A stretch of DNA of 57,781 bases, filler included, from Basidioascus undulatus (Eukaryota): the NCBI GenBank assembly GCA_000826855.1. It is 4 parts of 4 records of this genome, joined end to end, with 100 filler letters (N's around TTAATTAATTAA, not from the genome) between each part and the next. Parts side by side here need not be neighbours in the genome. Positions count along the whole stretch, not along the records: positions 43,448 to 57,781 come from JTLS01000739.1; 3 more parts are not named here. The stretch is one strand, 5' to 3'. Positions 1-54,310 of this stretch are shown here, one piece after another (position 1 is the stretch's first letter; each line of letters opens with the position of its first letter). The notes under the pieces are model-generated. The model was not told the origin of the DNA and searched no databases. It was given only the letters and a program-made list of their open reading frames with translations. A program made the position numbers and the translations under genes.

Positions 1-1943
1 TCAGTTAGAAAGAGACAGGTTTCTGACCTATCCTCGAAATTAGCAACCCCCAAGCACTTCCGCATCCCCGTCCCCATCCCCAACTTCGCAAGCTCCTCCT
101 CGCCCACCCACTTCCGGCGGACCGCCTCTCCCGCGTCGACCTTCCTCCGCTTCGCCTCCTTCCCTTCCTCGAGTGGAGCGAGCTCGAGCGAGTCGACGAG
201 GACGCGGTGCACGATGAGCGTCTGCCGGATGTGCGAGAAGACGTGCACAAACTGCCCGGCGGGTTTGGGGAGGGCTGCGGCGCCGGTGGGGGGGTTGGGG
301 AGGTGGGTTTGGAGGAGGGTGCGGAGCGCTTTGGAGTGTGCTGAGGGGGTGTGGGGTTTGGTGGACAGGGGCAAAGTGAGGGCGGGGAACTCGTACAGGC
401 CGCCGAGGAGCCCTGATCTCTCTCTTGTTCAGCTCTCCTAGGAGGTCTAGGATGAGAAGGGGGAAGGAGACAGGAGACGCACCGCCCTCCTCGCGCTTCA
501 CCACAAGGTACTGCGCCGCCTCCCGCGCTGCCGCGGGGCGGTACTCCACCACACCGACGACGCACTCCTCCTCGCGCGGCTTCTTGCGCTCCGCTTTGGC
601 CGGGTAGAGCGTGACGGCGTACGGCGCGGACGCGGAGAGCGGCTCGCAAGAGACGCAGAGGTCCTCGATGTCTGCTGTTGCGGGGTGCGGGGAAGTCGCC
701 TGCTGAGATGGGGAGTGAGTGTGGGTGGGATGGGCGAGGTGGGGGAGGAGAGGAGACAAACGTTGAGGTAGGCGCGGCAGGAGCTGGAGATTGGGCAGGA
801 GCCGCAGGGCGGCGTTTTGGGCGTGCAGATCGTTGCGCCTAGCTCCATGAGGGCCTGGAGAGGCAGTGGGGATACGAAGGGTGAGTCTGGTGGCCTGGGT
901 GGCGTAAAGAGAGCGGAGAGGGTACCTGGTTGAAGTTACCGGGCTGTGAAGGGTCGACAACCGCTTCGGCAGCCTTCCATAGGGCGTCAACGGTCGACTT
1001 CGCTTTGGGGTTGGCGTGCAGCGCGAGCTGCCGGGAAAGGACGCGCGCGACGTTCCCGTCGAGCTGCCTTGCCGTGCATAGGCCATGATTCAGTTGGAGC
1101 TAGGCTATGAGGGAGCAGTGCGGCGCACGATAGGCACTGGCTTGTTGAAGGCGATTGAGCAGATGGCGCCTGGCCCCCATCATGTCTTTAGGGCCTGCAC
1201 CCATCGTTCTCGACTAGCAAAGGCGATGGACTCACCAGCCGTGTACTTCCCGATTCCCGGCACGCGCTTCTCCAGCACTCCCACCTCATCAGGCACAACC
1301 CCCCCAAACTGGTCACGCACAACGATCGCGCCCTCGTGCAGCATCCGCGCGCGCCGGTAGTACCCCAGCCCGGTCCACAACGTGTTGACCTCCTCGAGCG
1401 TTGCGGACGCGAGGGACTCGAGTGTCGGGAAGCGCGCGAGCCAGCGCAAGTAGTACGGGATCACCGTCGCTGTTTGGGTCTGCTGCAGCATGATTTCTGT
1501 GGGGTGGGTGGGTGAGATGGCCGTGTGAAAGGGATGGAGGAGGGGACGGACCGGACACCCAGATCTCATACTGCCGTGTGAGAGTCGTATTCAGCCGGTA
1601 AGCAATGGGGTAAGGAAGACACGAAGATCGCTCACAGCTCGCTGGCTTCTCTCCTCGCCCACCAGGCTCGCATCCCAGTCCTTCCTCCAAGCTGATCTCC
1701 TCCGCTGCGTCAGCCTCCGCTCTCTCCCCAAGACTATTTCACCAGCTCACGCATTCCCCGATTCTCCTTCACACCCCCATACCACCCCAGCAAGTTCTCC
1801 CGGATCCGACCTTCAACAAGCCGCGCAGGCTCATGCACCGACGCGGGGTGCGCGTCGAAGGTGGACGCTGCTGGGGGCGACTCGGCGCGGGGCCGCTTCT
1901 TGAAGGATAACGTATGAGTCAGTACAGCCTGCTGAGCAGGCAT
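1..1943 (-). CDS. MUTYH: A/G-specific adenine DNA glycosylase (MutY/MUTYH), multi-exon, 3' end runs off the window
   Basis: Spliced exons read [94 protein letters not shown] (HhH-GPD plus 4Fe-4S cysteines), then DIEDLCVSC and a NUDIX-like tail (LLGGLYEFP..IFSHIRQT). ATG at 1943; no stop before position 1. Confidence 0.95.
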
Positions 1944-11056: not shown

Positions 11057-11686
11057 ATGGGCTCGTTTGTCGCCCCCTCGGCGGTGGCGTCAACAAGCAC
11101 AAGCACGCAAGCGTCCTCCTTGTCTCGGTGCGCACTCGTTCCTACGTGCCCCAGAGTTTTGTTGAGTTAGGCATGCTGACGGGTCCTTTTCTGAAGGGAA
11201 ATTTCTCTCTCTCCGCCACTCGTCTCCCCTAACTACGCCTCTGACGATGCTCGCTGGGCCGCAACTCTCTCGCGCGAACGTAGCGCGGACGGACACTTCG
11301 TCTATTGCGTCCTCTCCACCAAAATCTACTGCCGACCTTCCTGTTCATCCCGTCGACCCAAACGCGAGCAAGTCGTCTTTCATCCCGCTCCAGCTGCCGC
11401 CGCTGCGGCGGGTTTCCGCTCTTGCAAGCGCTGCAAGCCGGACGAGGCGGGCCTGGACCCCGCCCGCAAGCGCCAGGAGGAGGTCGTCGAGCGCGCAAAG
11501 GCAATAATGAGGGAAAAGATTAAGGCGACTGGGAATGGGGTGGACGCCATGCCGAGCTTGGCGGCATTGGCGAAGTCGGTGGGAATGAGCGCGTGGCACT
11601 TTCATCGGGTCTTCAAAGCCAAGGAAGGGTGCACGCCGGATGTATGGGGCAAGAGACTGAAGGAGGGGAGGAGAGGCCCGAGTTGA
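11057..11686 (+). CDS. Ada-like methylphosphotriester-DNA methyltransferase / AraC-HTH regulator (Ada Zn-binding domain plus HTH), about 186 aa; intron 11128-11196
   Basis: Missing from the ORF track. Exon 2 reads DDARWAATLSRERSADGHFVYCVLSTKIYCRPSCSSRRPKREQVVF..AGFRSCKRCKPD, with all four Ada-N cysteines. It is followed by PSLAALAKSVGMSAWHFHRVFKAKEGCTP (AraC HTH) and TGA at 11684-11686. The start codon is uncertain. Confidence 0.88.
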
Positions 11687-19048: not shown

Positions 19049-22000
19049 ATGTCCGACGTGGGCTCTCCGCGGCGCGATAGGGACGGCGACGAGCGCATGG
19101 GGAGAGGGTGCGTTCGCGCTCGCCGGAGTATGGCAGACAGAACCGTAGTGCTGATATCGCCTGGAGCAGGACCGATTCTGAGGGCTCCGGCGACGACCTC
19201 CGCCCTGGCGCGTCTGAGCACGACTCTTCCGAAGAGGAGGATGTGCGCTTACCTGCAGATATTGGAGTGCAAGCTTGCGGCCTAGCTGACGCGTGCGCGT
19301 GGACAGGACAACCCGGAGGAGGCCCGCAGGGTCGCTGAGGGGTTTATTGTGGACGAGGAGGAAGATGAGGAGGAATTCGATGGGAGGGAACGGAAACGGA
19401 GGAGGAAGAGGAGGAGGAAGGGTGAGTCCTCTCTTTTGCTAGTGCTGGTGCAGTCCCTGAAAAGCTGAGCGCGTGGCGGTGTGTGACCCTGCAGAGCGCC
19501 GTCAGTCGGAGGACTCGGACAACCTGGACGAGGAGGACCTTGAGCTTCTCGAGGAAAACACCGGCCAGCGCCGTTCGCGCACTGCAGGCGCGCTCAAGCG
19601 TCTTCAGCGCCGGCGCACGTCGCGCTCGCCGTCCGCAGACGAGGACGACGTGCGGGCCGAATCCCCGCCGCTGCCCACACTCGCGACGATGTTCGACGAT
19701 ATACGCAACAATCGCGACTTTATCGAGGACGACGACGACATTGGCGACTTTATCGAGGACGATGAGGAGGAGGGCGGGGACGATGAGGACCGGGAGCAGC
19801 GCAGGCGCGCGCGCAGGAAGGAGGAGCGCGAGAGGAGGGGCAAGTTCATGGCGAATCCGGAGCTGGTGGGCATCGACAAGGAGTGAGTGGGAGGCTATCT
19901 CTGTCTGGGTGACGAAGCGCTGGGACTGAGGAGACGGGACAGCTCTTGGGACGAGATCTTCGAGGTCTTCGGCGACGGCACCGACTACGACTGGGCGCTC
20001 GACCTTGAAGACGAGGAGGAAAAGCGCAGGGGCGAGATCAAGTCGTACACCGATGTGCGTTTCAGTACATCGAGCCAGGCCCGGGCACACGCTGAACCTT
20101 TGCATTTTGCAGATCTTCGAGCCCTCGGAGATCCGCGCGCGCCTACTTACACGCGAAGACGACGAGATCCGGACACGCGACGTGCCCGAGCGCATGCAGC
20201 TCTCCACCCCCGCCCTTTCCACATCCTCGACCGTCCTCGTCCAAGGCCGCCTCTCCGAGCCTTTCGACCCGCTGGACATCGACGCAGCCACGGCATGGGT
20301 CACTCTGCGCGTCTCTCCCGCGCTCACGGACCTGTTCCTGAGCCCCGAGAGCCACCTCTACGCGCGCCAGGACGACTTCCGGATGGCCGTGAAGCGCGCG
20401 CTCGAGCTCCTCCTCCTCGACCAGTACGAGGTGCCCTTCATCCACGCGCACCGCCGCGACCTCGTCTCGTTCTTCGACCCCGCCGGCCCTCCCGCGCCCG
20501 TGCACGGCCAGGAGCACCACAACGACCGGCCGGCCGGCACGTCAAGCGGCGCGCGCAACGCCAAGCAGATGAGCCTCCTCTCGCGCAACGACCTCTGGGC
20601 CGTTCACGCGCTCGCCATCCGTTTTCGCGCGCTCAACGAGCGCATCAAGGCGCTCAGGGAGCAGGTCGAGAAGCTCGGCATCTCGGACAAGTACCTCGAG
20701 GACCACCTGCTTCCCGAGGCGGACAGTCCCGAGGTTGTCGCGGACGTCTTGGAGTGGCTCAACTCCCGCTACGCGCAGCAGATCCGCGACTCCCAGGCGA
20801 TGGAAGACGGCGATGGCGACCGCATGCTTAAGCGGCCGAGTCACTCTTCCGCGTACGAGCGCGCGAAGAAGACGATCATGGCGAAGCTGGCGAAGGTGCG
20901 CGGTTCGCGGGTGCGGTGGGGATCTGCAGTAGGACTGACCGTTGGCCGAGGAACAGGAGTTCGGCATTTCGGCGGACGAGCTCGCGCTCAACTTCACGAG
21001 CGCGTCGGGGAAGCTGCACTTCCCTGTTGATCCGGACGAGCCGCCCACCGAATATGCCCAGAACTTTGTCACCGGCGAGGACGACGAGAAGCTCACCCCC
21101 TACTTCGCCTTGAACAGTAAGTTTGCAACATTATGCATTCTGTTTAGTGGCTCATGTTGAGTTGTGATGCGCAGCCGCCAAGATGATCCTCGCGACCGAG
21201 ATCGGGCGCGACCCGCTTCTGCGCAAGCAAGTTCGCGAGCGCTTCCGGGCCGAGGGCACGATCACCGTGACGCCGACGGAGCGCGGCCTGACGAAGATCG
21301 ACGAGCAGCACCCGTACTACAACTTCAAGTATCTCCGTGACAAGCGCGTCTCACTCCTCGCCACGGGCTCGACCCAGTTCCTCTCGATCCTCCAGGCCGA
21401 GTCGGAGCACCTCGTCAAGGTCGACATCAACCTCCCCAAGGGCCCCATGAGCATGCTCGTCCAGCTCCTCGGCGACGCCATCACCAGCGACTCGTTCAGC
21501 GCGGCCGCGGACGAGTGGAACGAGCTTCGCCGCGAGATCGTCAAGAACGCGCTCGACGAGGCGCTTCTGCCTCACGGCAAACGGTACATCCGGGAGTGGC
21601 TGAGGGAGGAGCAGGAGGATTTCCTCGCGAAGCGGTGTGCGGATCGGCTCTCGGACGTGCGTTTCATGACTCCTCATTTGGTGGACAAGGAGAGTGCCTG
21701 ACATTTGCTTCCACGCAGCGTGTCGACGTCGCTCCGTTCGCTCCGCCCGACTGGGAGAAGGGCGAGACTCCCGCCGTCCTCGCCGTGTCGTCCGGGCAGG
21801 GCGACCCCAAGAAGGACGCGATCATGGCCGTCTTCCTTGACGAGGGCGGGCGTTTCCGCGAGCGGCTCAAGATCGACAACCTAGCGGACGCGCAGAACAT
21901 CGAGGATTTCAAGGAGCTGCTCCTCTCGCGCAAGCCCCAGGTCGTCGTCGTCGGCGGGCTCAGCGTGCGCACGCACGACGTCTTCAAGACCGTGCGCGAG

Positions 22001-25000
22001 CTCGTCAACCGCTTCACCGTCGAGGGCGGCGAGAATGCGCCCGCGATCCCCGAGCCCGGCGCGCCCGCCCCGCAGCCCATGGGCATGCGCCAGCAGGACG
22101 AGTGGGGGATGCCGATCCAGCAGGACCCCGCCGTCGCGCCGCAGCCCGAGGGCGCGACGCCCGTCATCTTCGTCCACGACGACGTTGCGCGCATCTACCA
22201 GCACAGCAAGCGCGCGGAGGAGGAGTTCGGCGAGCTGCCCCTCACGGGGAAGTACTGCGTCGGACTGGCGCGGTACGCGCAGAGCCCGCTCAACGAGTAC
22301 GCCGCGCTCGGTGAGGATATCGCCGCGATCACGTTCGACCCCCAGCAGCGTCTGGTATGCATCGGTCCACTTCATTTCTCATACGCGCCCGAACGCTGAT
22401 CAGATTTGTGCTCGCAGTTGCCTCGCGACAAGCTGATCGGCGCGCTGGAGCGCGCGCTCGTGAACGTCGTCAATGACGTTGGCGTCGACGTCAACCAGGC
22501 GGTCCAGGACGCGTACTACCAGCACCTTCTGCAGTTCGTGAGTGGCTTCGGTCCTCGCAAGGCGCAAGGCTTCGTGAAGCAGGTCGCGGCTAGGGTGTGT
22601 ATCTGTCGTTCTTGGCAGCCATAGTTCCAGCTGCTCACGTGGTGTCTCTTGCAGGGCGGCTACCTCGTCAACCGCGACGAGCTCGCCAAGTCCGAGATCC
22701 TGGGCTACAACGTCTTCATGAACGCCGCCGGCTTTCTCCGCATCCGCGAGGACCCCGAGTCGGAGGAGGCGCTCCGGAAGGCGCGCGGCACGGAGGACCC
22801 CGACCCGCTCGACTCGACGCGCATCCACCCGGAGGACTACGAGCTCGCGCGCAAGATGGCCGCGGACGCGCTTGAGCTCGACGAGGAGGACATCGCGGGC
22901 CAGCACCCGTCGCAGGTCGTCGGCCAGCTCATGGACGACGACAGCAACGAGAGCAAGCTCGACGAGCTCAACCTCGACGACTACGCCGTCAACCTGCTCC
23001 AGACGCGCCAAGAGCACAAGCGCGCCACGCTCGACAACATCCGCACCGAGATCCTCCAGCCGTTCGGCGAGCGCCGCGACGAGTTCGCGCAGCCCGGCGC
23101 GAAGGAGGTCTTCACCATGCTCACGGGCGAGACCGAGTACACTCTGAGTCCGGGTGTTGTCGTGCCCGCTCAGGTGCCTAGTCGTGATGCTGTTTGGTCC
23201 AGCTCAGCACCGACTCTGACACTCTTCCCCGGCAACAGGTCATGCGCACGCAGTCGCACATCGTTAAGCTTCGACTCGACTCGGGCGTGGACGCGTTCAT
23301 CAACATCGTCTACCTTGCCGATCAGCAGCCTGAGTGCGTCTCGATTCAACGTTATTCGGTGTTTCCCGGACTACGTGCTCACATGGTCGTCGCAGGCGTA
23401 CGGACGCTGTCGTCAAGAAGGGCCAGACCATCCAGGGCATGGTCCTCAACATCGACTACGACAAGTTCACGGTCGAGCTCTCGTCGCGCCCGCAAGATCT
23501 CGCGCTCGACAGCGTCTACCGCAAGAATATCGCGCCTGACGAGTATTACGACATGGAGCGCGCGACGCGCGACAAGGAGGATGCGGCGAAGCGCAAGAAG
23601 TCCGAGGCTGCGCGGTCGACGCGCATCATCGAGCACCCTAACTTCGCCAACATCAACTCGCTCCAGGCCGAGCGGCTGCTCGCCAGCAGAATGCCAGGCG
23701 ACGTCGTCATTCGGCCATCCTCGAAGGGCGCCGATCACCTTGCCGTGACGTGGAAGGTCGATGATGGGCTGTACCAGCACGTCGGTGCGTTCTTCTCTGC
23801 TATGGGTCGCGTTGAGCGACGGCGTACTGACTCTGGCTGCCCAGACGTACTGGAGATCGACAAGGATAACGAGTGGTCCCTCGGCAAGATGCTGCGCGTC
23901 GGCAAGGCCACGTACTCGGATTTGGACGAGCTGCTCGTCTCGCACATCACGCCGATGTTCCGCAAGATCGAGGAGCTCAAGCGCCACGAGAAGTACAAGG
24001 GCGCGAGCGAGGTGGAATTACGTACGCCCTCTTCTTGTTAATCCCACACTAATCTTGTCCGCTTACGACGGCATTCGGATCAGACGGGTACTTGCGCGAT
24101 TTCGTCCAGATGAACCCTGGGAAGAGCGTCTACGCTTTCTGTCTCGATCGCGACCGTCCCGGAGGCTTCGTCCTCGGTTTCTTGGCAAACGAAGCGAGTC
24201 AGATTCAGAACTGGGTAAGCATCTGCTGTCCTCAATCCAGGTCGAGAATTGACCCGTCGATCTGACTGCCTCTGCTCCTCAGCGCGGCCGCGTGCATCCG
24301 GGCGCGTACCAGCTCGGCGAGGCGAAGGATTTGCCGACGATGGTCGAGCTGTGCAACGCGTTCAAGCGTCAGGTAAGTCAAACTTTCGCAAATACACGTT
24401 ATGGCTTGAGCTCTGACGCATTTCGCTGGACCATCTCAGTACAAGGCTGCGATCGAGGCGAAGAGGGCGAACGGCGGCAAGACGCCCGGTCGGCCAACGG
24501 CAACACCCTACATGGGCGGTCGGACGCCGGCGGTCGGGTACCCCGGCGGCAAGACGCCAGACCCCGTACCGCTTGATCCGAGGTGCATTACGACCATGTC
24601 ACGTATTTTGGCAACATGCTGAATCTTGCATTTCACTCAGAACTCCTCGGCATCCGGGCATGGGCAGCGCCCAACCTCCGCCGGCCGCATATCCTCAACA
24701 ACAGCCTGCCGTCACCTCGTATCAGCAGCCGTCAGGGCAATGGGGGGGTTACGCGCAGCCTTCCGCCGCTCAAGGTGGATGGGGAGGCAGCAGGGCCGCC
24801 CCGCCGCCGCAGACGCACGGAGGATGGGACGCTCCGCCCCCGCCGCCGCAGCAGGTACGAGCGGGACCTTGGGCTTTATCTATGTCCTTAGTGCTGACGG
24901 CGTTTCACACGTGTACTACAGGCTGCCTATCCACCGGCCGCGGCTTACAACGGTGGTAGCAGCGCCGGATGGGGTGCACCGCCGCCGCCGCCAGCTCAAG

Positions 25001-43347: not shown

Positions 43348-43447
43348 NNNNNNNNNNNNNNNNNNNNNNNNNNNNNNNNNNNNNNNNNNNNTTAATTAAT
43401 TAANNNNNNNNNNNNNNNNNNNNNNNNNNNNNNNNNNNNNNNNNNNN
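43348..43447. other. Artificial contig-joining spacer
   Basis: N44 + TTAATTAATTAA + N44. Confidence 0.98.
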
Positions 43448-46547: not shown

Positions 46548-47958
46548 GTTATTGATATACGTCGAGGAGGGGGACTTTGAAGAGTGTATGTCAGATCGAA
46601 GAGCAGGGACATGGAAGACGCATCGTATAAGAGAGCTAAAGTGCCGTTTCGATGTGTGGAAGCAGCAAGCCTGGGCAAGAGTCATGTGCCAGGGCGGACT
46701 CGAATCATGACGACACGAAAGCACGATACATGAAGAAACTTGCTGGAGTCTGCCATCAACAAGAAACACTTCAGGGATGGAAGCCGCGGGCAGCTGGCAG
46801 AAGCAACCAGAGGTTGACAGTAGCTACCAAGCAAGCACGCCGCGGAGGTGCACACGTGAGCTGTTTCCGATAACTCGCAACTCCCTGCCGCCGGGCTCAT
46901 GGCGGGGTTACCTGTCACATGGTCAACGCCGGTAAAAAGAGCTTCATGATCTTAAGTCCAGAAAAGGAAAGTACAGCCGAAGGTCAGGATGTGCGGCATC
47001 ATTCCACCGAGTTGACGAGGTGTTCAACCGTCGCTGCATCTTTGTACCGAGAATCAACCCTGCCGGTCAAACTGATCATTTCTCAGGATCGTTTGCTTGT
47101 TCATATACAAGAAGTCTCTTAGGTAATGTTCGACGAAGAAAGGGAACAACTATTATCAAAGCTCGAGCCTGAGGGAACACACTTGGAGTGGCCTTCCACT
47201 TCCCGAAAGCGCCGTCAAAGTGTAGCGGATTCGCTTGGGATTGGAAGGCTGTGGCCCGGGTACTGAACAGCGGATGACTCAAGGATAGCCACTGTATACT
47301 TTCAGGTGAAAAGGGTGTGGAAGAAAGCGAAACAGCTGTTGTATGCAAGCGGCGCAGTCAGTTCTGTGCGACTGGAATCCTCACCATTCAGGCTGTTGGG
47401 TTACAGTCTGCATTGACGGTGCGCTAGCTTATTTGAAAGATTGCTATTACAGGGATTATCGGTTAGAATGAGTACAAGCCTTGCTGCAGCCTGCTTAGAT
47501 GTCTTTGAGTCAACCAGTTGCTGTGGCAATCTTCGGCAGTGGGTTTGTAGACAGCGCAAATCCGAATATTGCTACATATGTCGAGAGGTCTGGATAGCTG
47601 TGAAAATTTGCTGTTCGCACTATTCCCCCCTAAGCTTTCCTCAGCACAGGCGGCCAAGGGAAGACCTTGACAGACACTACATTTTCCTTCCTGCAATCGT
47701 TCGGCACTCGAGGACTCCGCTTGTTTGCAACTTCCGTACTTCGAGGGGCGAGTCCGCCAGTGTCAGTGCCTCTTGGCAAAGGGGTCGCCCCCGGACTTGC
47801 CACACGGAAGTCAGATGCAGCATGGTACGGATGGCTGTTTGCAAGGGAACGCCTGGTAGTCTGCAAAGTGTACGCCTCCTCGACAGGCCCTTCCGGTTTT
47901 GCAGACAACAGTGCCGCCTCCTGCAACCGCCGCAGCGCCCGCCCTCCCTCTCCTCGAG

Positions 47959-47966
47959 TATATAAA
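47959..47966 (+). promoter_or_regulatory. TATA box upstream of the secreted repeat-precursor gene
   Basis: TATATAAA about 150 bp upstream of ATG 48115, followed by a CT/CA-rich leader. Confidence 0.6.
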
Positions 47967-48114
47967 GCCCAGGCCTCTGCTGTCACTTTTCCCTCAGCGG
48001 ACTACTCCTCTCACCCATTCACAGCTTATTCATTCAACTCAGCCCTGGTGGCCCCTTTACACCTTCACACTCGCTCTACACCACACACATACACATCCAT
48101 CTCGCACAAGCATC

Positions 48115-49413
48115 ATGTTCACTACTACCACTGCCTCCGTCGTTCTCGTCCTCCTCTCGTCCGCCTCCATCGACGCCGCCCGTGTTCCTGCTCGGGCTCT
48201 GCGTGCCCGCGGCGACACCAACATCGCCAACTCCGTCAACACGAACCTGGAGTGAGCTTTCTGTCCAAATGTCACTGTTGAAACTGCTCGCTGACCGACC
48301 CTGTTCGGTCTGGCTCAAAGTGTCGATATCGAGCAGTACGACTCCAAGCACTACCGCCGCTCCCCCGACAATGGCCCGATCAACATCGGCAATCATGTGG
48401 ACGTCGACTTCGATGTCAGTCACTGATTCACTCGATAACGGTACTGCGGCTGACCCTCAGTCTCTCTACGCACTCGCAGGCCGACATCAGCAACTACAGC
48501 CACGACTCGCACAAGTGGAACCGCCGCGGCCATGGCCCTATCAATATCGGCAACGAAGTGAACGGCAAGTCTCTCTGCATTCCGACATCGCATGCTGGCA
48601 CGGACTGACCAGATCTCTCCCTGCGCTCATAGTCGACTTCGAGGCCGACATTAGCGACTGGTCCAACTCGCATAGCTACTGCAAGCGTGACGACGACGAT
48701 GACGGCGATGTAAACATCAGCAACGAGGTCAACACGAATGTCAGGGCCGACATCGAGCGCTATGAGAACAAGTCGCATGGCGGTCACTGTCGCCGGCGTC
48801 GCGACACTGGCGAGCGTGAGGACTCGAAGGGCAAAGGTCAGCAAACTCCCTAAGCGACTATCAATAACTGGGGCTGAATTTCCCCGTAAACCCGTTCAGT
48901 TGACAAGCCGAAGCGCGAGGATAAGGAGAAGTCGGGTGACAAGAAGTCGGACAAGGAGTCTAAATCGGAGGGCAAGAAGTCCGACAAGCGGTCTGAAGAC
49001 AGGGAACAGTCGGAGTACAAGAAGTCGGACGAGAAGTTCGAAGACAAGTTGTACAAGAAGTCTGAAGAGAATAATAAGTCCGACAAGCGGTCTGAGGACG
49101 AGGAGAAGTCGCAGTTCAAGAAGAAGTCGGGCGAGAAGGAGAAGTCCCGCAACGAGAAGTCGGAGGCCAAAGGTGATTGCTTTTCACTCCTGTCGACTCC
49201 CCATAGTCCCAAGACTGACAAACCGGTGGTACTACAGACGAGAAGAAGAAGAAGTCCAAGCACTACCCTCGCGGCGATGTGAACATCGCCAACAAGGTCA
49301 ACACGAACCTGGATGGTCAGTACCACCTTCTCCAAATCACACAGTCGTTGACCCAAGCTGAACGCCTCAACCACACAGTTGACCTCGAGGAGTACAAGGA
49401 CAGCAAGTACTGA
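48115..49413 (+). CDS. Secreted Kex2-processed repeat protein (KEP)-like precursor, 301 aa, 7 exons
   Basis: Exons 48115-48251, 48321-48414, 48480-48564, 48633-48836, 48900-49172, 49238-49315 and 49379-49413 total 906 nt in one open frame (intron 3 is GC-AG). The product has a hydrophobic signal-like N-terminus and five GxxNIxNxV(N/D)x(N/D)xxxD(I/L)xx(Y/W) repeats bounded by RAR, RR, RR, KR, RRRR and PR. A K/E/D/S block lies before the last repeat. Confidence 0.85.
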
Positions 49414-49872
49414 GCGGTGCTGTCGGCGCGAGCCCGCCGCAGTGTGTGAGATGAGCGTGAATCGTGTAGATGTCTTGTTTTATTTTGTTATAGCTACCTA
49501 CCTGGCGCCGGTCGCCACTTTAGCATGTTTAAGAAATTATGATATATGTTCGCTATTGTCCACGGAGATCAGAGTGGTGTTCCCTACGCATAGTCAGTGC
49601 CTTTTTGAGTCAGCGAAAAATCCTACTGGAGCTTGCAGTGTCGGAATGCTGGCACTCGGAAGTCTGGATTGCTGTCGAATGAGAATCGGCGGTGATGACA
49701 ACAGCAATGCGTTCTGCTGTTGCTAGGCGATCAAGGGAGACGGCGAAATGATCAAGGCCTTTCGGAAGACGAGCGAGACACATCGTGCAGAACGGGATAA
49801 ATGAATGCAAGACGTTGAAGACCTCCAGCAGAAGGACGTTGAACAACAATCCGGATTGTGTTCCGACAGGCC

Positions 49873-51452
49873 TCACCCACTCCCACTCTCCCTCCTGCTC
49901 CCCGCACTGACCCGCCTCCCCCTTCTCCGTCTCTCCACCTCATTCTCCATCTCCTCCACGACGCTCCGCAGCCCATTCGCCTCCCAGCGCCCGTACACCC
50001 ACCCAACATACAAGAACGTCGTGCCGCCCCAGCCGGCAGCGATGCCGGCCAAAACGAGGATGGGCGCGAAGTACGCCGAGGGCAGGAAGGCGGAGGCGAC
50101 GATGAGCGCGAGCGCGAGTGCGAGGAGGAGGAGGAAGAAGAGGAGGTGCGTGCGTTGGAGCGAGATGGAATGCGCATAGTAGGTCGTGAGTGCCCGCAGC
50201 GCCGCGGGGAGCGGCGGCGCGTGCGACGATGTAGAATGGGCGGGTGCGGAAGGGGTGATAGCAAATGTGGTGGACACCCCAAAGTGATCGGAATACGAGA
50301 AGTCCTGCCCCGGCACGCGCTCAGTGAAGACCACCTCGGCGTGCTGCGGCGCGAGGCTCGCGCGCGGGGGCGCGCGCTCGGCCGCCGGCCCGCGAAAGAG
50401 AACGTAGTCGAGGCGCTTCCCGCCCGCAAGGTGGACAGCGTCCGAGAAGAGCTTGTGCGCGTGGAAGCTGTTCAGCGCGTTGTCCGCCGTGATCCCGTCC
50501 CGCGCGACTGCCTCGTGCGGGTTTTGCGGCGGGTGCGCGGAGGGCGGGTGCAGGACCGGCCAGACGTCGGTGAGAGAGGCGTGCGTGAGGAGGAGCTGGA
50601 GAGTGAGGGAGGAGGGGAGAGTGTTGACGTCGCCTGTCTGGATGTGGAGGACTCTCAGCTAGGGGGGAGAACAAGAAGGAGCGTGAGCATTCGACGCACT
50701 ACGATGACATGCCGCCCGCGTTCGGACGAGCCGCGAACAAGGTTTCCGAGCTCCCAGGCTTGCGCCAGTCGATGGGCATAGCGGCATTGCTCGTCATGCT
50801 CATCATACGCGGCGTGAAACTGCCGCATACCCAACCTTCAGCCGGCCCTTCCTTTCCCGAAGTGCAAGACTGAAGGCTCACATGCGTATTGAACACCTCG
50901 ACATCTCCCAGACCTGACACATACAGCACCACGCTCCCTGCGCCTTTCCCAGCGAAGAAATCGCCCTTGGCCACCTCCAGAGGTGGGCCGTTCAGCCGGT
51001 ACGGGAGGAAGGAAGACGACTGGATGGCGTGTCGGGAGAAGACGCAGAGGCCCGAGCCGACGGCGCCGCTGTTCGCCCACCAAGCTCAGCACAAAAAATA
51101 GCTAATTACGAGTGATAACAAAGAATCGGGGACGCACGAGAAGAAGTACTTCGAATAGGGGAACGAGTCTGCGATGGTATCGCGGATCGCTACGAAGTCA
51201 TCATAGACCCAGACCTCCTGAAGGCACACGACATCGTGCGGGGTGCCTGCGAGGGCAGCGGCTATGGCGCGCACGCGGATGGGTCGAAACTTGGATACGT
51301 GCTTGAGTCCCCTGCGTAGAGATATAACATTGAGCGGGCAGTTCAGGCCGAGTTGGTCGCGGACGGCTGGATACGGACCAGATGTTGAGCGTCAGGACTC
51401 GCAACGAGAGGCTTTGCCCCGGCGACGTCGGAGAGAGCGGTATGTCGGCCAT
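49873..51452 (-). CDS. ISC1: Inositol phosphosphingolipid phospholipase C / neutral sphingomyelinase
   Basis: LRVLTLNIW|GLKHVSK..DVVCLQEVWV..GSGLCVFSRHAI..YRLNGPP..GDFFAGKG..VFNTH..HRLAQAWE..GDVN..GKRLDYVL..YSDHFGV, with two C-terminal hydrophobic helices. Confidence 0.93.
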
Positions 51453-51903: not shown

Positions 51904-53587
51904 CTACTCCTCGTCCTCGGAATCTTCACCGTCAAACCTCTTCCGATCCGCTGCCGTCCACGGCCTTATCCGGCCTTCCTCGTCCCGCAAAATCACGAAC
52001 CCGTATCCATAAGACGAGCCGTGGACGAGCCGCAGCTTCGGAAGCACCTGGCTAACGTGCCGTGCGGTGTCCTCCATCGCAGCCAGCCAGACAGACTTCT
52101 GCTGGGATCTGGGAATAGAGTGGAAAACAGGGAAACGTTTGAAAACCTCCAACGACGACAGGCGAGCGAGGACTGGACGCCAATCCCACTGTTCATGGAC
52201 TTTAAGTCAGTACAGGCAAGGGAGCGGACGAGGCAGAAACTTGAGCAGCAGTTACGCACAAGTCCGTTGCCATCGACTGCGTGACCGAGGCTAATCCGTC
52301 TCAACCTCGGCGCAGCATGTGCAATCTTCGCAGAAACTGCGGTCTCCATCTCAATGTCCTGGACGCCGCCATTCTCCTTCAGAGCTTTGATGAATGCCGG
52401 ATCTCCGAAGGCAGTACGCCGTAGAGTCCGCTCCGCGCTGTGAGAGGTCGCCGTCAGCGCAGCATCACAGTTGCAATCTGAACCGATACGTAAAAGGACT
52501 CAAGCTTAGGCAACGCCGAGAGAGGCATGTCATCGAGATCGCAGTTACTGCCGATATAGTTCAGGACGAGCGTCTCGATACGGGGATGACGAATGAGGAA
52601 TTGGTGCAGGTCCTTTGGGTTGTAGTCAAGACCGTAGATCTAAAGCGATCGAAGATGGAGAATGAGGGCTGAGTTCGAGAAGAGCGGACTGATGTCGGTA
52701 TCGAAGTTGCGATAGTGGCCGTACACTGTAGCACTCGGACCTGTAGACGGTCGATGAGTGACAAGCTACTGAGTACAATTGAGAGGATATACACAAAAGT
52801 TAAGGAAAAGAGTGCGGAGGTTTGGGCATCCGTTGACGAGCATCCTCGCCATGTCCTTCAAGCCGAGCTCAACGCCGAAGACCGCGGTGTTGAGATGGAA
52901 CTCCTCCAGCCCACTAAGCTGCCAGATCTGATCCCATCCCTCAAAAGTTATCTACAGCAATTTCTCGCCAGCGTAAACCCCAGTCCGGGAAAATCACCTC
53001 GGCGGCGTCCTCCGGCGTAAACTTCTCGGAAGGATCCCAGATACGGAGGCTGAGCAGGTCCGGGCCGCTCGTCCGAAGCGCCCGCCAAAGAGCCACAGAA
53101 CGGGCCCATCTCATCCGCCATTCGAAGCGCTGCAGCCCGGACATCACCTCGAGGGCGGGCAAGAACGCGGCTTCAGCGATTGGGCGTTGTGCGTGCCGCT
53201 TCCTTCGCTTCTCCTTGGCCACCTCGTCCGAGTCTCCAAGCTGCCTGTACTCGTCCGGCTCCAAAGACTCCCCTCGTTCCTCATCGCTCGCTCGAGAGCC
53301 AGACAATCCGCAGGCAGGAGTTCTTTGAACCAGTCAGAGCCGAGGTCGCTATCGAGCGTGCATGAGTGAACGTGCACCGCGAGCCCGGGGACGGACGCGA
53401 GGTGCTGCTAGGTTGCCACCCGGTCGATCGAGGTTTGCAAAAGACGATACTGGAACGGGCTGGGATGGATGGACTCGTAGAGGTCGCGACACGCGAGCGA
53501 GAGCGACAGCAGGTCGCGGAGCGGGACGAACGACAGAACACGCGCTTGAAGCTCGCCAGGGATACCGAGCAATGTCAGTTCCGACAT
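51904..53587 (-). pseudogene. F-box / RNI-like protein pseudogene
   Basis: MSELTLLGIPGELQARVLSFVPLRDLLSLSLACRDLY is an F-box motif. It is followed by an in-frame TAG at 53408-53410 and a frameshift near 53300. Later LRR-like pieces (MSGLQRFEW, ALRTSGPDLLSLRI, VLPKLRLV) end at 51904. Confidence 0.7.
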
Positions 53588-54310
53588 CGTGAGATTGACA
53601 GTGAGAACTTGGCTGAAGTTGGTGGCATGAGGGTCAGAATGCTAGTGCGTTGGGGTTGTGGCGGTTAGGAGGAGAGTTGAAGACAAGACAAGACAAGACA
53701 AGAAATTTATGGACGTGCACTTGGCACCGCTCTTTAGATACCGATAGTAGCTTTCACCGTCCACTCCGCCCACCGCGCAGTCTCTTTGCTTCTTCGACTA
53801 ACTACTCTATCCAACCCTTTGTCATGGCTGCGAACGCCCCCGTTATTGCTGGCCAGCGGACGCCTGAGCGCCTGATGACCCATGGAACAGCCTGGTGTGA
53901 ATGCATGAAGTGCATGAAGAACTCGAGTCAGGCGGTCGGCTCCGGGCGTCCCCTGTCGTGCTTTCACAATTTGACGGCTGCGTCAAACCATCTGGGCTTC
54001 AAATTTGCTAGAAAGCATGTGTATAACCAAACAGTTTTCGAAAATTCTGAAAGTGACGGCGACGGTACAGGGCCGGCAATGAGGCTTCATTATGGGGCAT
54101 GACTGCACAAGTCTGCCAACCTCTTTCGGAGAGTCGAGATGTTCTTTTCTATAGAGCCACAGTCCTTGAATGACATTGCATGAAGTTTAAGTAGGCTTCT
54201 CAGGCGTACAATTGGCGCCAGACCTGCAAAAGCCGCAGCGTTGTCATAGAGATGTGGTAAAAGGGCGGCGCCGAGGCACGGTCGCATTTGCAGGGACGAG
54301 CCCATATCCT

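Follow-up and report, generated by a model that had tools for sequence, protein, structure and literature searches.

Within a stretch of 57,781 nucleotides from Basidioascus undulatus (assembly GCA_000826855.1; the whole stretch is hereafter the window), a gene on the plus strand at 48115-49413 appears to encode an expressed polyprotein of the Kex2-processed repeat protein (KEP) type, made by a basidiomycete and cut by a kexin in the Golgi, the basic residues being trimmed afterwards. We give this reading a probability of roughly 0.55. The locus had been singled out in a first-pass annotation, made from the DNA alone, which described a secreted precursor of five amphipathic peptides and proposed a repellent-like or functional-amyloid system. 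The layout described there, with a secreted-type (signal-like) N-terminus, repeats and dibasic sites, is borne out. The evidence that the gene is real and expressed is good, and the one feature that would speak for an amyloid or repellent nature is the amphipathicity of the peptides.

Splicing of the interval 47700-49900, both by hand and by script, yielded seven exons with a coding sequence (CDS) of 906 nt and a product of 301 aa. This product is identical to the string given in the first-pass annotation, all five peptide strings included, and the junctions RALRAR, RR, RR, KR, RRRR and HYPR are all found in it. The features of the gene, some of them defined with the help of a spliced contig from a sequencing run designated X3, are the following:

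47961-47966 (+): TATA box (TATAAA), about 40 nt upstream of the 5' end of the spliced X3 contig
48004-48114 (+): 5' untranslated region (UTR), its extent taken from the spliced X3 contig
48115-48251 (+): exon 1, with the signal-like N-terminus, the pro-segment and the first half of repeat 1
48115-48165 or 48115-48180 (+): signal-like N-terminus, residues 1-17 or 1-22, in exon 1
48166-48210 (+): pro-segment ending in RAR, in exon 1
48252-48320 (+): intron 1, 69 nt, GT-AG, within repeat 1; junction 48251/48321 present in the X3 contig
48321-48414 (+): exon 2, with the end of peptide 1, an RR site and the first half of repeat 2
48355-48360 (+): RR site after peptide 1, in exon 2
48415-48479 (+): intron 2, 65 nt, GT-AG, within repeat 2; junction 48414/48480 present in the X3 contig
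48480-48564 (+): exon 3, with the end of peptide 2, an RR site and the first half of repeat 3
48522-48527 (+): RR site after peptide 2, in exon 3
48565-48632 (+): intron 3, 68 nt, GC-AG with donor GCAAGT, within repeat 3; X3 junction 48563/48632, equal to 48564/48633 given one ambiguous letter
48633-48836 (+): exon 4, with the end of peptide 3 (Cys), KR, the whole of peptide 4, RRRR and the start of the charged block
48683-48688 (+): KR site after peptide 3, in exon 4
48689-48790 (+): peptide 4, last residue Cys, entirely within exon 4
48791-48802 (+): RRRR, in exon 4
48837-48899 (+): intron 4, 63 nt, GT-AG; junction in the X3 contig, with the cut at +2
48900-49172 (+): exon 5, a block rich in K, E, S and D
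49173-49237 (+): intron 5, 65 nt, GT-AG; junction in the X3 contig, with the cut at +2
49238-49315 (+): exon 6, with the end of the block, the SKHY-PR junction and the first half of repeat 5
49261-49272 (+): SKHY-PR junction, in exon 6
49316-49378 (+): intron 6, 63 nt, GT-AG, within repeat 5; predicted
49379-49413 (+): exon 7, with the end of peptide 5 and the TGA stop

The strongest support for this model comes from run X3, in which one contig of 979 nt spans 48004-49312 in six blocks, with introns 1 to 5 removed (69, 65, 68, 63 and 65 letters). Its junctions are the predicted ones for these five introns, given the ambiguities of one or two letters entered in the list; a shift of one letter makes the third junction read GC..AG, and the GC-AG type of intron 3 is thereby confirmed. 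The contig ends at 49312, 3 nt short of the donor of intron 6, so that this last intron is one of prediction. Hence, five of the six splice junctions drawn in the first-pass annotation are found in the contig, while the sixth lies outside it and stands as predicted.

The nature of X3 bears directly on expression. The run is labelled 'DNA?', which is a guess, and it derives from the same sample as the genome run X2. Its assembly amounts to 15.7 Mb in 36,764 contigs; those of X1 and X2 amount to about 34 Mb. Given this small size, the number of contigs and the clean removal of introns 1-5, the likeliest interpretation is that X3 is a transcript assembly rather than a source of a processed DNA copy, and the gene is probably expressed.

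Independent indications are found in the DNA itself. The GC content at third codon positions of the CDS is 0.818, compared with a GC content of 0.529 for the introns and 0.574 for the window as a whole, and A occupies the third position in 3% of the codons. Under a codon model trained on the open reading frames (ORFs) of the SPT6 gene in the same window, the log-likelihood of the CDS is -1168.6 in frame, compared with -1290.2 and -1340.1 in the shifted frames. The 111 nt of the 5' UTR (48004-48114) contain no ATG, and the predicted start codon is the first AUG. Codon bias, TATA box and first AUG all agree with a real gene. In a homologous contig of run X1, TATATAAA is kept at the position that matches the TATA box, at a loose end of the match.

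The six introns (69, 65, 68, 63, 65 and 63 nt) are of the GT-AG type in five cases and of the GC-AG type in one, intron 3, and all six carry a branch motif of CTGAC or CTGAA type near the 3' end. For intron 3, an alternative GT donor three codons upstream leads to a stop codon. Removal of intron 6 restores the consensus of the repeat. This intron has no in-frame stop, and its retention would keep the frame and add 21 residues inside repeat 5; both spliced and retained forms are possible. As the first-pass annotation had pointed out, introns cut four of the five repeats: introns 1, 2, 3 and 6 split repeats 1, 2, 3 and 5, respectively. Precursors of this kind are therefore missed by scans based on ORFs, and gene structure can hide KEPs.

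A side observation concerns introns 1, 2 and 6, which are inserted within 1-2 nt of the same point of the repeat, yet in three different phases. Their near-shared position may be a result of intron sliding or of independent gain. When introns were compared with one another, no likeness was found past the splice signals; hence, they give no sign that the repeats were duplicated together with them.

The protein begins with an uncharged start, followed by a hydrophobic run of about 11 residues (approximately residues 7-17) and then by small residues. The mean Kyte-Doolittle value over 9 residues reaches up to 2.7 at residues 6-9, and small residues occupy positions -3 and -1 before residue 18. 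This run is the sole hydrophobic segment of the protein. It is too short to span a membrane, and a membrane anchor was rejected on that ground; a glycosylphosphatidylinositol anchor was likewise rejected, as the C-terminus is hydrophilic. The pro-segment that follows is basic, has 15 residues and ends in RAR.

Five related units come next, each starting with G-[DP]-x-N-I. In each unit, a strand of 16-18 residues carries an aliphatic or aromatic residue (I, V, L or F) in every second place, alternating with N, D, E, S or G; after the core come an aromatic residue and a polar, His-containing tail. The hydrophobic moment of the 16-residue cores is maximal at 180 degrees in all five (0.60-0.83, against 0.21-0.34 at 100 degrees), and the moment observed was reached by a fraction of 0.0005-0.0045 of 2,000 shuffles per core. 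The alternation of beta type is therefore real, in agreement with the pattern of hydrophobic residues and N or D noted in the first pass. The predicted peptides have 25, 32, 29, 34 and 25 aa, with net charges of -4, -5, -5, -7 and -3. The protein has only two Cys residues, which end peptides 3 and 4 and directly precede KR and RRRR. When the product of exon 4 (67 aa) was modelled by AlphaFold2 on its own and without an alignment, the mean pLDDT was 54.2 and no secondary structure was obtained.

The repeats are beyond chance. The 20-aa cores share from 7/20 to 16/20 residues, the closest pairs being 1-5 (16/20 aa, 49/60 nt) and 2-3 (15/20 aa, 49/60 nt). Synonymous divergence exceeds non-synonymous divergence in all ten pairs, although the numbers are small and the pairs non-independent; values of dS and dN are 0.45 and 0.16 for pair 1-5, and 0.47 and 0.16 for pair 2-3. 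Units are separated by RR, RR and KR, with RRRR after unit 4 and PR before unit 5. The linkers of the repeat alignment have drifted apart in length and sequence but for one feature: each of the four contains a [KR]R pair, which no core has. This arrangement was reproduced by none of 20,000 composition-preserving shuffles, a figure that is inflated since the repeats descend by duplication and the linker positions are not fully independent.

Between units 4 and 5 lies the charged block (residues 163-272, 110 aa), with 40 K+R, 34 D+E, 17 S and three KR sites. It contains internal repeats of about 51 nt, two copies of which are 84% alike, with KR at the same place in each. At its end, the DNA for SKHY-PR is 76% identical to that for the SKHY-RR tail of unit 1, so that the last junction looks like a former RR site in which one Arg has become Pro.

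A diverged relative of the gene is present in run X1, which contains an identical locus and, in addition, a contig of 4,304 nt that aligns at 80-90%, with a depth of 17.9 compared with 42. No contig of a second copy was seen in run X2. The contig may stem from a paralogue, or else from another strain or a related species present in the sample, and it shows that at least one further copy of the gene exists. The aligned parts are 47986-48068 (promoter and 5' UTR); 48208-48565 (repeats 1-3 and introns), with 46 differences and 22 gap letters; 48678-48843 (exon 4 from the KR site on), with 15 differences and no gaps; and 49236-49321 (exon 6), with 7 differences and 8 gap letters. Unalignable stretches are nearly equal in length (139 vs 140 and 112 vs 113 letters). 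The segment made of intron 4, the charged block and intron 5 has 392 letters here and 174 in the second copy.

Among the 40 substitutions listed for the X1 copy, 15 codons are changed, 11 of them synonymously, and the four non-synonymous changes are all conservative (two N to D, one D to N and one S to T). In the first RR site, one of the Arg codons is changed, synonymously. The listed changes per 100 nt amount to 17.4 in intron 1 and 15.4 in intron 2, and to 4.5 in the part of exon 1 covered, 9.6 in exon 2 and 4.7 in exon 3; within 48208-48565, all listed indels fall in introns 1 and 2. In exon 6, the number of deleted letters, 8, is not a multiple of three, and the 3' part of the copy may therefore be damaged, spliced differently or badly aligned.

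How such a protein might be classified depends on published operational definitions. Le Marquer et al. (2019) define KEPs as secreted proteins in which three or more motifs lie between KR, RR or KK sites and account for 15% or more of the length (PMC6339444). For Umemura (2020), a KEP has a signal peptide and three or more repeats, each of 8 to 100 aa, between KR, KK, RK or RR sites (PMC7329392). Here there are five units with [KR]R in all four linkers, the peptides have 25-34 aa, and the five 20-aa cores account for 100 of 301 residues (33%). With its signal-like N-terminus, the protein would count as a KEP under both definitions. The term denotes a layout and not a homologous family; hence, membership says nothing on function.

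If this classification is correct, a sequence of events can be proposed. The N-terminus would act as a signal peptide and be removed near residue 17-22. A kexin in the late Golgi would cleave behind every dibasic pair, with RAR and PR as less certain sites, and a carboxypeptidase of Kex1 type would then trim the basic residues. The products that leave the cell would be five acidic peptides (25-34 residues, net charge -3 to -7) and several small charged spacer fragments. The spacer would probably keep the precursor soluble, its length being free to vary. In the weakest step of the proposal, the peptides would act outside the cell or at its surface through their amphipathic beta-strands, in the manner of the Ustilago repellents, which we regard as the most likely role. 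Because the peptides are long, mutually different and regular as amphipathic beta-strands, and lack the Ste13 signature (X-Ala or X-Pro after the processing site), a surface or structural role is suggested more than a hormone-like signal. The residues that follow the six junctions are GD, SP, GH, DD, DT and GD, with the signature at one of the six.

Several observations weigh against the KEP reading. Cleavage by Kex2 is predicted from the sequence. Peptide 1 is preceded by RAR and peptide 5 by PR, neither of them a dibasic site, and the first and last peptides may therefore stay joined to the pro-segment and the spacer. Pro-Arg is, for its part, the site of a cut in the K1 killer toxin precursor. 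Processing at sites with other residues at P2 is documented in general terms (PMC2515848). The cores, with identities from 7/20 to 16/20, are more divergent than is usual for KEPs, and the strong negative charge of the peptides (-3 to -7) argues against unaided self-assembly at neutral pH. X3 is not on record as RNA. Relatives by which the conservation of dibasic sites across species might be judged are limited to run X1, where the tally given above covers the listed differences, with 8 further substitutions and 13 further indels outside it, and where the 3' end of the copy may be damaged or spliced differently.

A different view of the same features, unlikely in our estimation but a serious contender, is that the protein is secreted intact and that its five units, stacked on one another in a single chain, form the rungs of a beta-solenoid or sheet. 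The dibasic pairs would then sit in exposed loops, the charged block would be a disordered insert, cleavage would be absent or partial, and the Asp/Asn face might perhaps bind calcium. Units of about 30 residues, regular and beta-amphipathic, are what such a fold would use; they have diverged as structural repeats do, and rungs could be linked through the two Cys residues, which close units 3 and 4. A likeness to calcium-binding loops is seen in the Asp-x-Asp-x-Asp pattern and in the run of D before Gly. However, the dibasic pair is the one linker feature that has been kept in four of four linkers while the rest changed, and the spacer of 110 aa, very different in length in the X1 copy, parts unit 5 from units 1-4 and itself carries KR at repeated positions.

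If the precursor is indeed processed, the peptides might still be diffusible signals of hormone or pheromone type, sensed by a receptor, instead of surface material. The layout is the same as in KEPs of alpha-factor type (PMC6339444), and the function of most KEPs is unknown (PMC9769878). We nevertheless find it very doubtful: the peptides are long (25-34 aa), strongly acidic and of five different sequences, and the Ste13 signature, which marks hormone-like KEPs according to Le Marquer et al. (PMC6339444), occurs at only one of six junctions. Far less probable is a precursor of a modified cyclic peptide of the ustiloxin or dikaritin type, that is, a peptide made on ribosomes and modified after translation (RiPP), in spite of the signal-like N-terminus and the repeats between Kex2 sites that it would share with ustiloxin-type precursors (PMC7329392). 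Its cores are of 25-34 aa and non-identical, compared with short repeated cores, and genes with DUF3328 (UstYa) lie at a mean distance of 3.09 genes in the survey by Umemura (PMC7329392). Scans with Pfam detected DUF3328 in none of 150 ORFs of at least 75 aa between 35.7 and 57.8 kb, in none of 100 ORFs between 0 and 35.7 kb and in none of 20 large ORFs, in line with its reported absence in the first pass, and the RiPP hypothesis was rejected for this reason. The set from 0-35.7 kb consisted of 120 ORFs of at least 105 aa, minus 22 in the SPT6 region, plus two containing N. As little credit can be given to the possibility that the locus is non-functional, either a chance set of ORFs or a decaying pseudogene. 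No relative is found in protein libraries and no sequencing run on record as RNA is listed for the locus; but the spliced X3 contig, the strong codon bias, the excess of synonymous changes between repeats and against the X1 copy, and a frame that is intact over seven exons bring this possibility close to refutation.

Returning to the KEP reading, a bolder version of it can be put forward, which we hold to be improbable. The gene would represent a second class of fungal repellent, unrelated to Rep1, in which acidic peptides freed by kexin, with an Asn/Asp face and an aliphatic face, coat the spores or hyphae of an early-diverging basidiomycete by assembling as a film of amphipathic beta-sheet or as a functional amyloid. 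Assembly might take place perhaps only once calcium or low pH neutralises the acidic face, and the lysine-rich spacer would act in cis as a solubiliser that blocks assembly in the secretory pathway. A trigger of this kind, be it calcium or pH, is speculation. The beta-arcade or functional amyloid proposed in the first pass has a single basis here, the beta-type amphipathicity of the cores. Pfam scans of the exon products and of the ORFs that carry the exons gave no match to the profiles of curli or HET-s amyloid repeats.

Searches for relatives gave little. In Pfam, the exon products matched no family at E values up to 10 apart from an irrelevant match to CB_ParB_C (E 0.11), and the ORFs carrying exons 1-6 matched none at E up to 0.01. 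A word-based search of a protein library with the exon 4 product found no relative among longer or similar-length proteins, the ESM Atlas returned no usable match, and none of 282 pattern matches in metagenome contigs was confirmed. A profile of the repeat, with 33 positions built on a permuted unit and scoring 55-61 bits per unit on the gene itself, revealed no second copy in the window. Against 1.84 billion representative proteins it yielded two matches and no fungal protein. One of the two, a bacterial-type adhesin of 3,273 aa, was rejected because its many repeats contain a short G-D-[VL]-N-[IV]-G stretch by chance; the other, a low-complexity product of 615 aa, was also discarded. The statement in the first-pass annotation that the repeat belongs to no named family thus holds for the Pfam scans and this profile search. 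A full-text literature search for five motifs of 8-9 residues gave no paper, and motif look-ups found no match in the supplements of Le Marquer et al. (PMC6339444) and Umemura (PMC7329392); the table of Umemura gives accessions, not sequences (PMC7329392).

The scarcity of relatives should be read in the light of the host. With a piece of SPT6 from the same window as query, 101 proteins of the library were retrieved at E values no higher than 1e-30, and those with a named source all came from basidiomycetes; the best relatives were those of Wallemia mellicola (59% identity) and Wallemia hederae (51%), with most others at 40-50%. Judged by this gene, the source is a basidiomycete without a close annotated relative in the library, from which its own proteins are absent. 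Since the nearest annotated SPT6 is only 59% identical, the failure to find relatives is weak as a negative result and is largely explained by the lack of a close annotated genome. It shows that no annotated proteome has a recognisable relative, rather than that the family is confined to one species.

Other features of the window, assigned with Pfam and ordinary as neighbours, are these:

3-1590 (-): HhH-GPD and NUDIX_4 domains on adjoining ORFs
11195-11683 (+): ORF with Ada_Zn_binding (E 1.9e-29) and weak matches to AraC-type helix-turn-helix domains
19900-24250 (+): SPT6 gene, with HTH_44, YqgF, HHH_9 and Spt6_S1 domains
49873-51391 (-): downstream neighbour, with a weak Exo_endo_phos match (E 4.6e-4, below the Pfam cut-off; match at 51.1-51.4 kb)
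53411-53641 (-): F-box ORF (E 3.6e-5)

The pair of domains at 3-1590 is as in a gene for a DNA glycosylase of MutY type, cut by the edge of the window. The ORF at 11195-11683 shows a bacterial-type, Ada-like architecture on fungal DNA. The minus-strand ORFs of 49873-51391 may be sphingomyelinase-like. The window contains 264 N in total, one stretch of which is found at about 43390-43440, some 5 kb upstream of the gene.

The peptide type described here is new, while the layout of the precursor is already known in fungi. Like KEPs at large, the protein combines a signal-like N-terminus, no known domain and at least three related units bounded by KR or RR, the units making up a third of its length. 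The presence of a second repeat type in the spacer recalls the two motif types found in 77 of 1,193 KEPs (Le Marquer et al., PMC6339444), and the absence of a detectable homologue is shared with 2,560 of 7,878 KEPs (Umemura, PMC7329392). It departs from them in that its units are long, diverged (7/20-16/20) and acidic, and in that two of six junctions are non-dibasic. KEPs number thousands, and very few have a known product or role (PMC9769878); mass spectrometry has revealed peptides from basidiomycete KEPs (Vogt et al. 2022, PMC9769878). Against this background the gene makes a clean test case: it is probably expressed, its predicted peptides are long, easily synthesised and acidic on their Asn/Asp face, and their amphipathic beta pattern is of unusual regularity, and it belongs to a basidiomycete lineage without a close annotated relative.

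With the precursor of the yeast alpha-factor, the protein shares the order of signal peptide (signal-like here), pro-region and repeated peptides after dibasic sites (PMC6339444). The alpha-factor units are, however, near-identical and short, with X-Ala or X-Pro after the sites, whereas here X-Pro follows one of six junctions (PMC6339444). Candida albicans Ece1, the precursor of candidalysin, is likewise a polyprotein; it is secreted, and the successive action of Kex2 and Kex1 yields a number of peptides that are alike in length but not identical (PMC5784256). Here, in contrast, the cores are anionic and their moment peaks at 180 degrees, not 100 (0.60-0.83 vs 0.21-0.34), no sequence relation with Ece1 was found, and nothing in the protein points to membrane activity. 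Candidalysin, for comparison of size, has 31 aa.

Another parallel is Rep1 of Ustilago maydis, a basidiomycete pre-pro-protein with repeats and KEX2 sites that gives amphipathic peptides of tens of residues (25-34 aa predicted here). Rep1 is cut at its KEX2 sites into 10 peptides of 34-53 aa, which form amyloid fibrils in the wall (PMC3133707), and it also lacks the Ste13 signature (Le Marquer et al., PMC6339444). The two proteins seem to have no sequence relation, as judged indirectly from a repeat profile search that gave no fungal protein. Rep1 has 12 units and the present protein five; the peptides here are strongly acidic, with an Asn/Asp polar face, and a large spacer rich in K, E and S is present. 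Wall location and amyloid have been demonstrated for Rep1, while for the gene described here both are hypothetical. If its peptides fail to assemble, the gene adds one more orphan KEP; should they come together at the surface of the cell, a single precursor layout would have given rise to repellent-like surface coats on more than one occasion.

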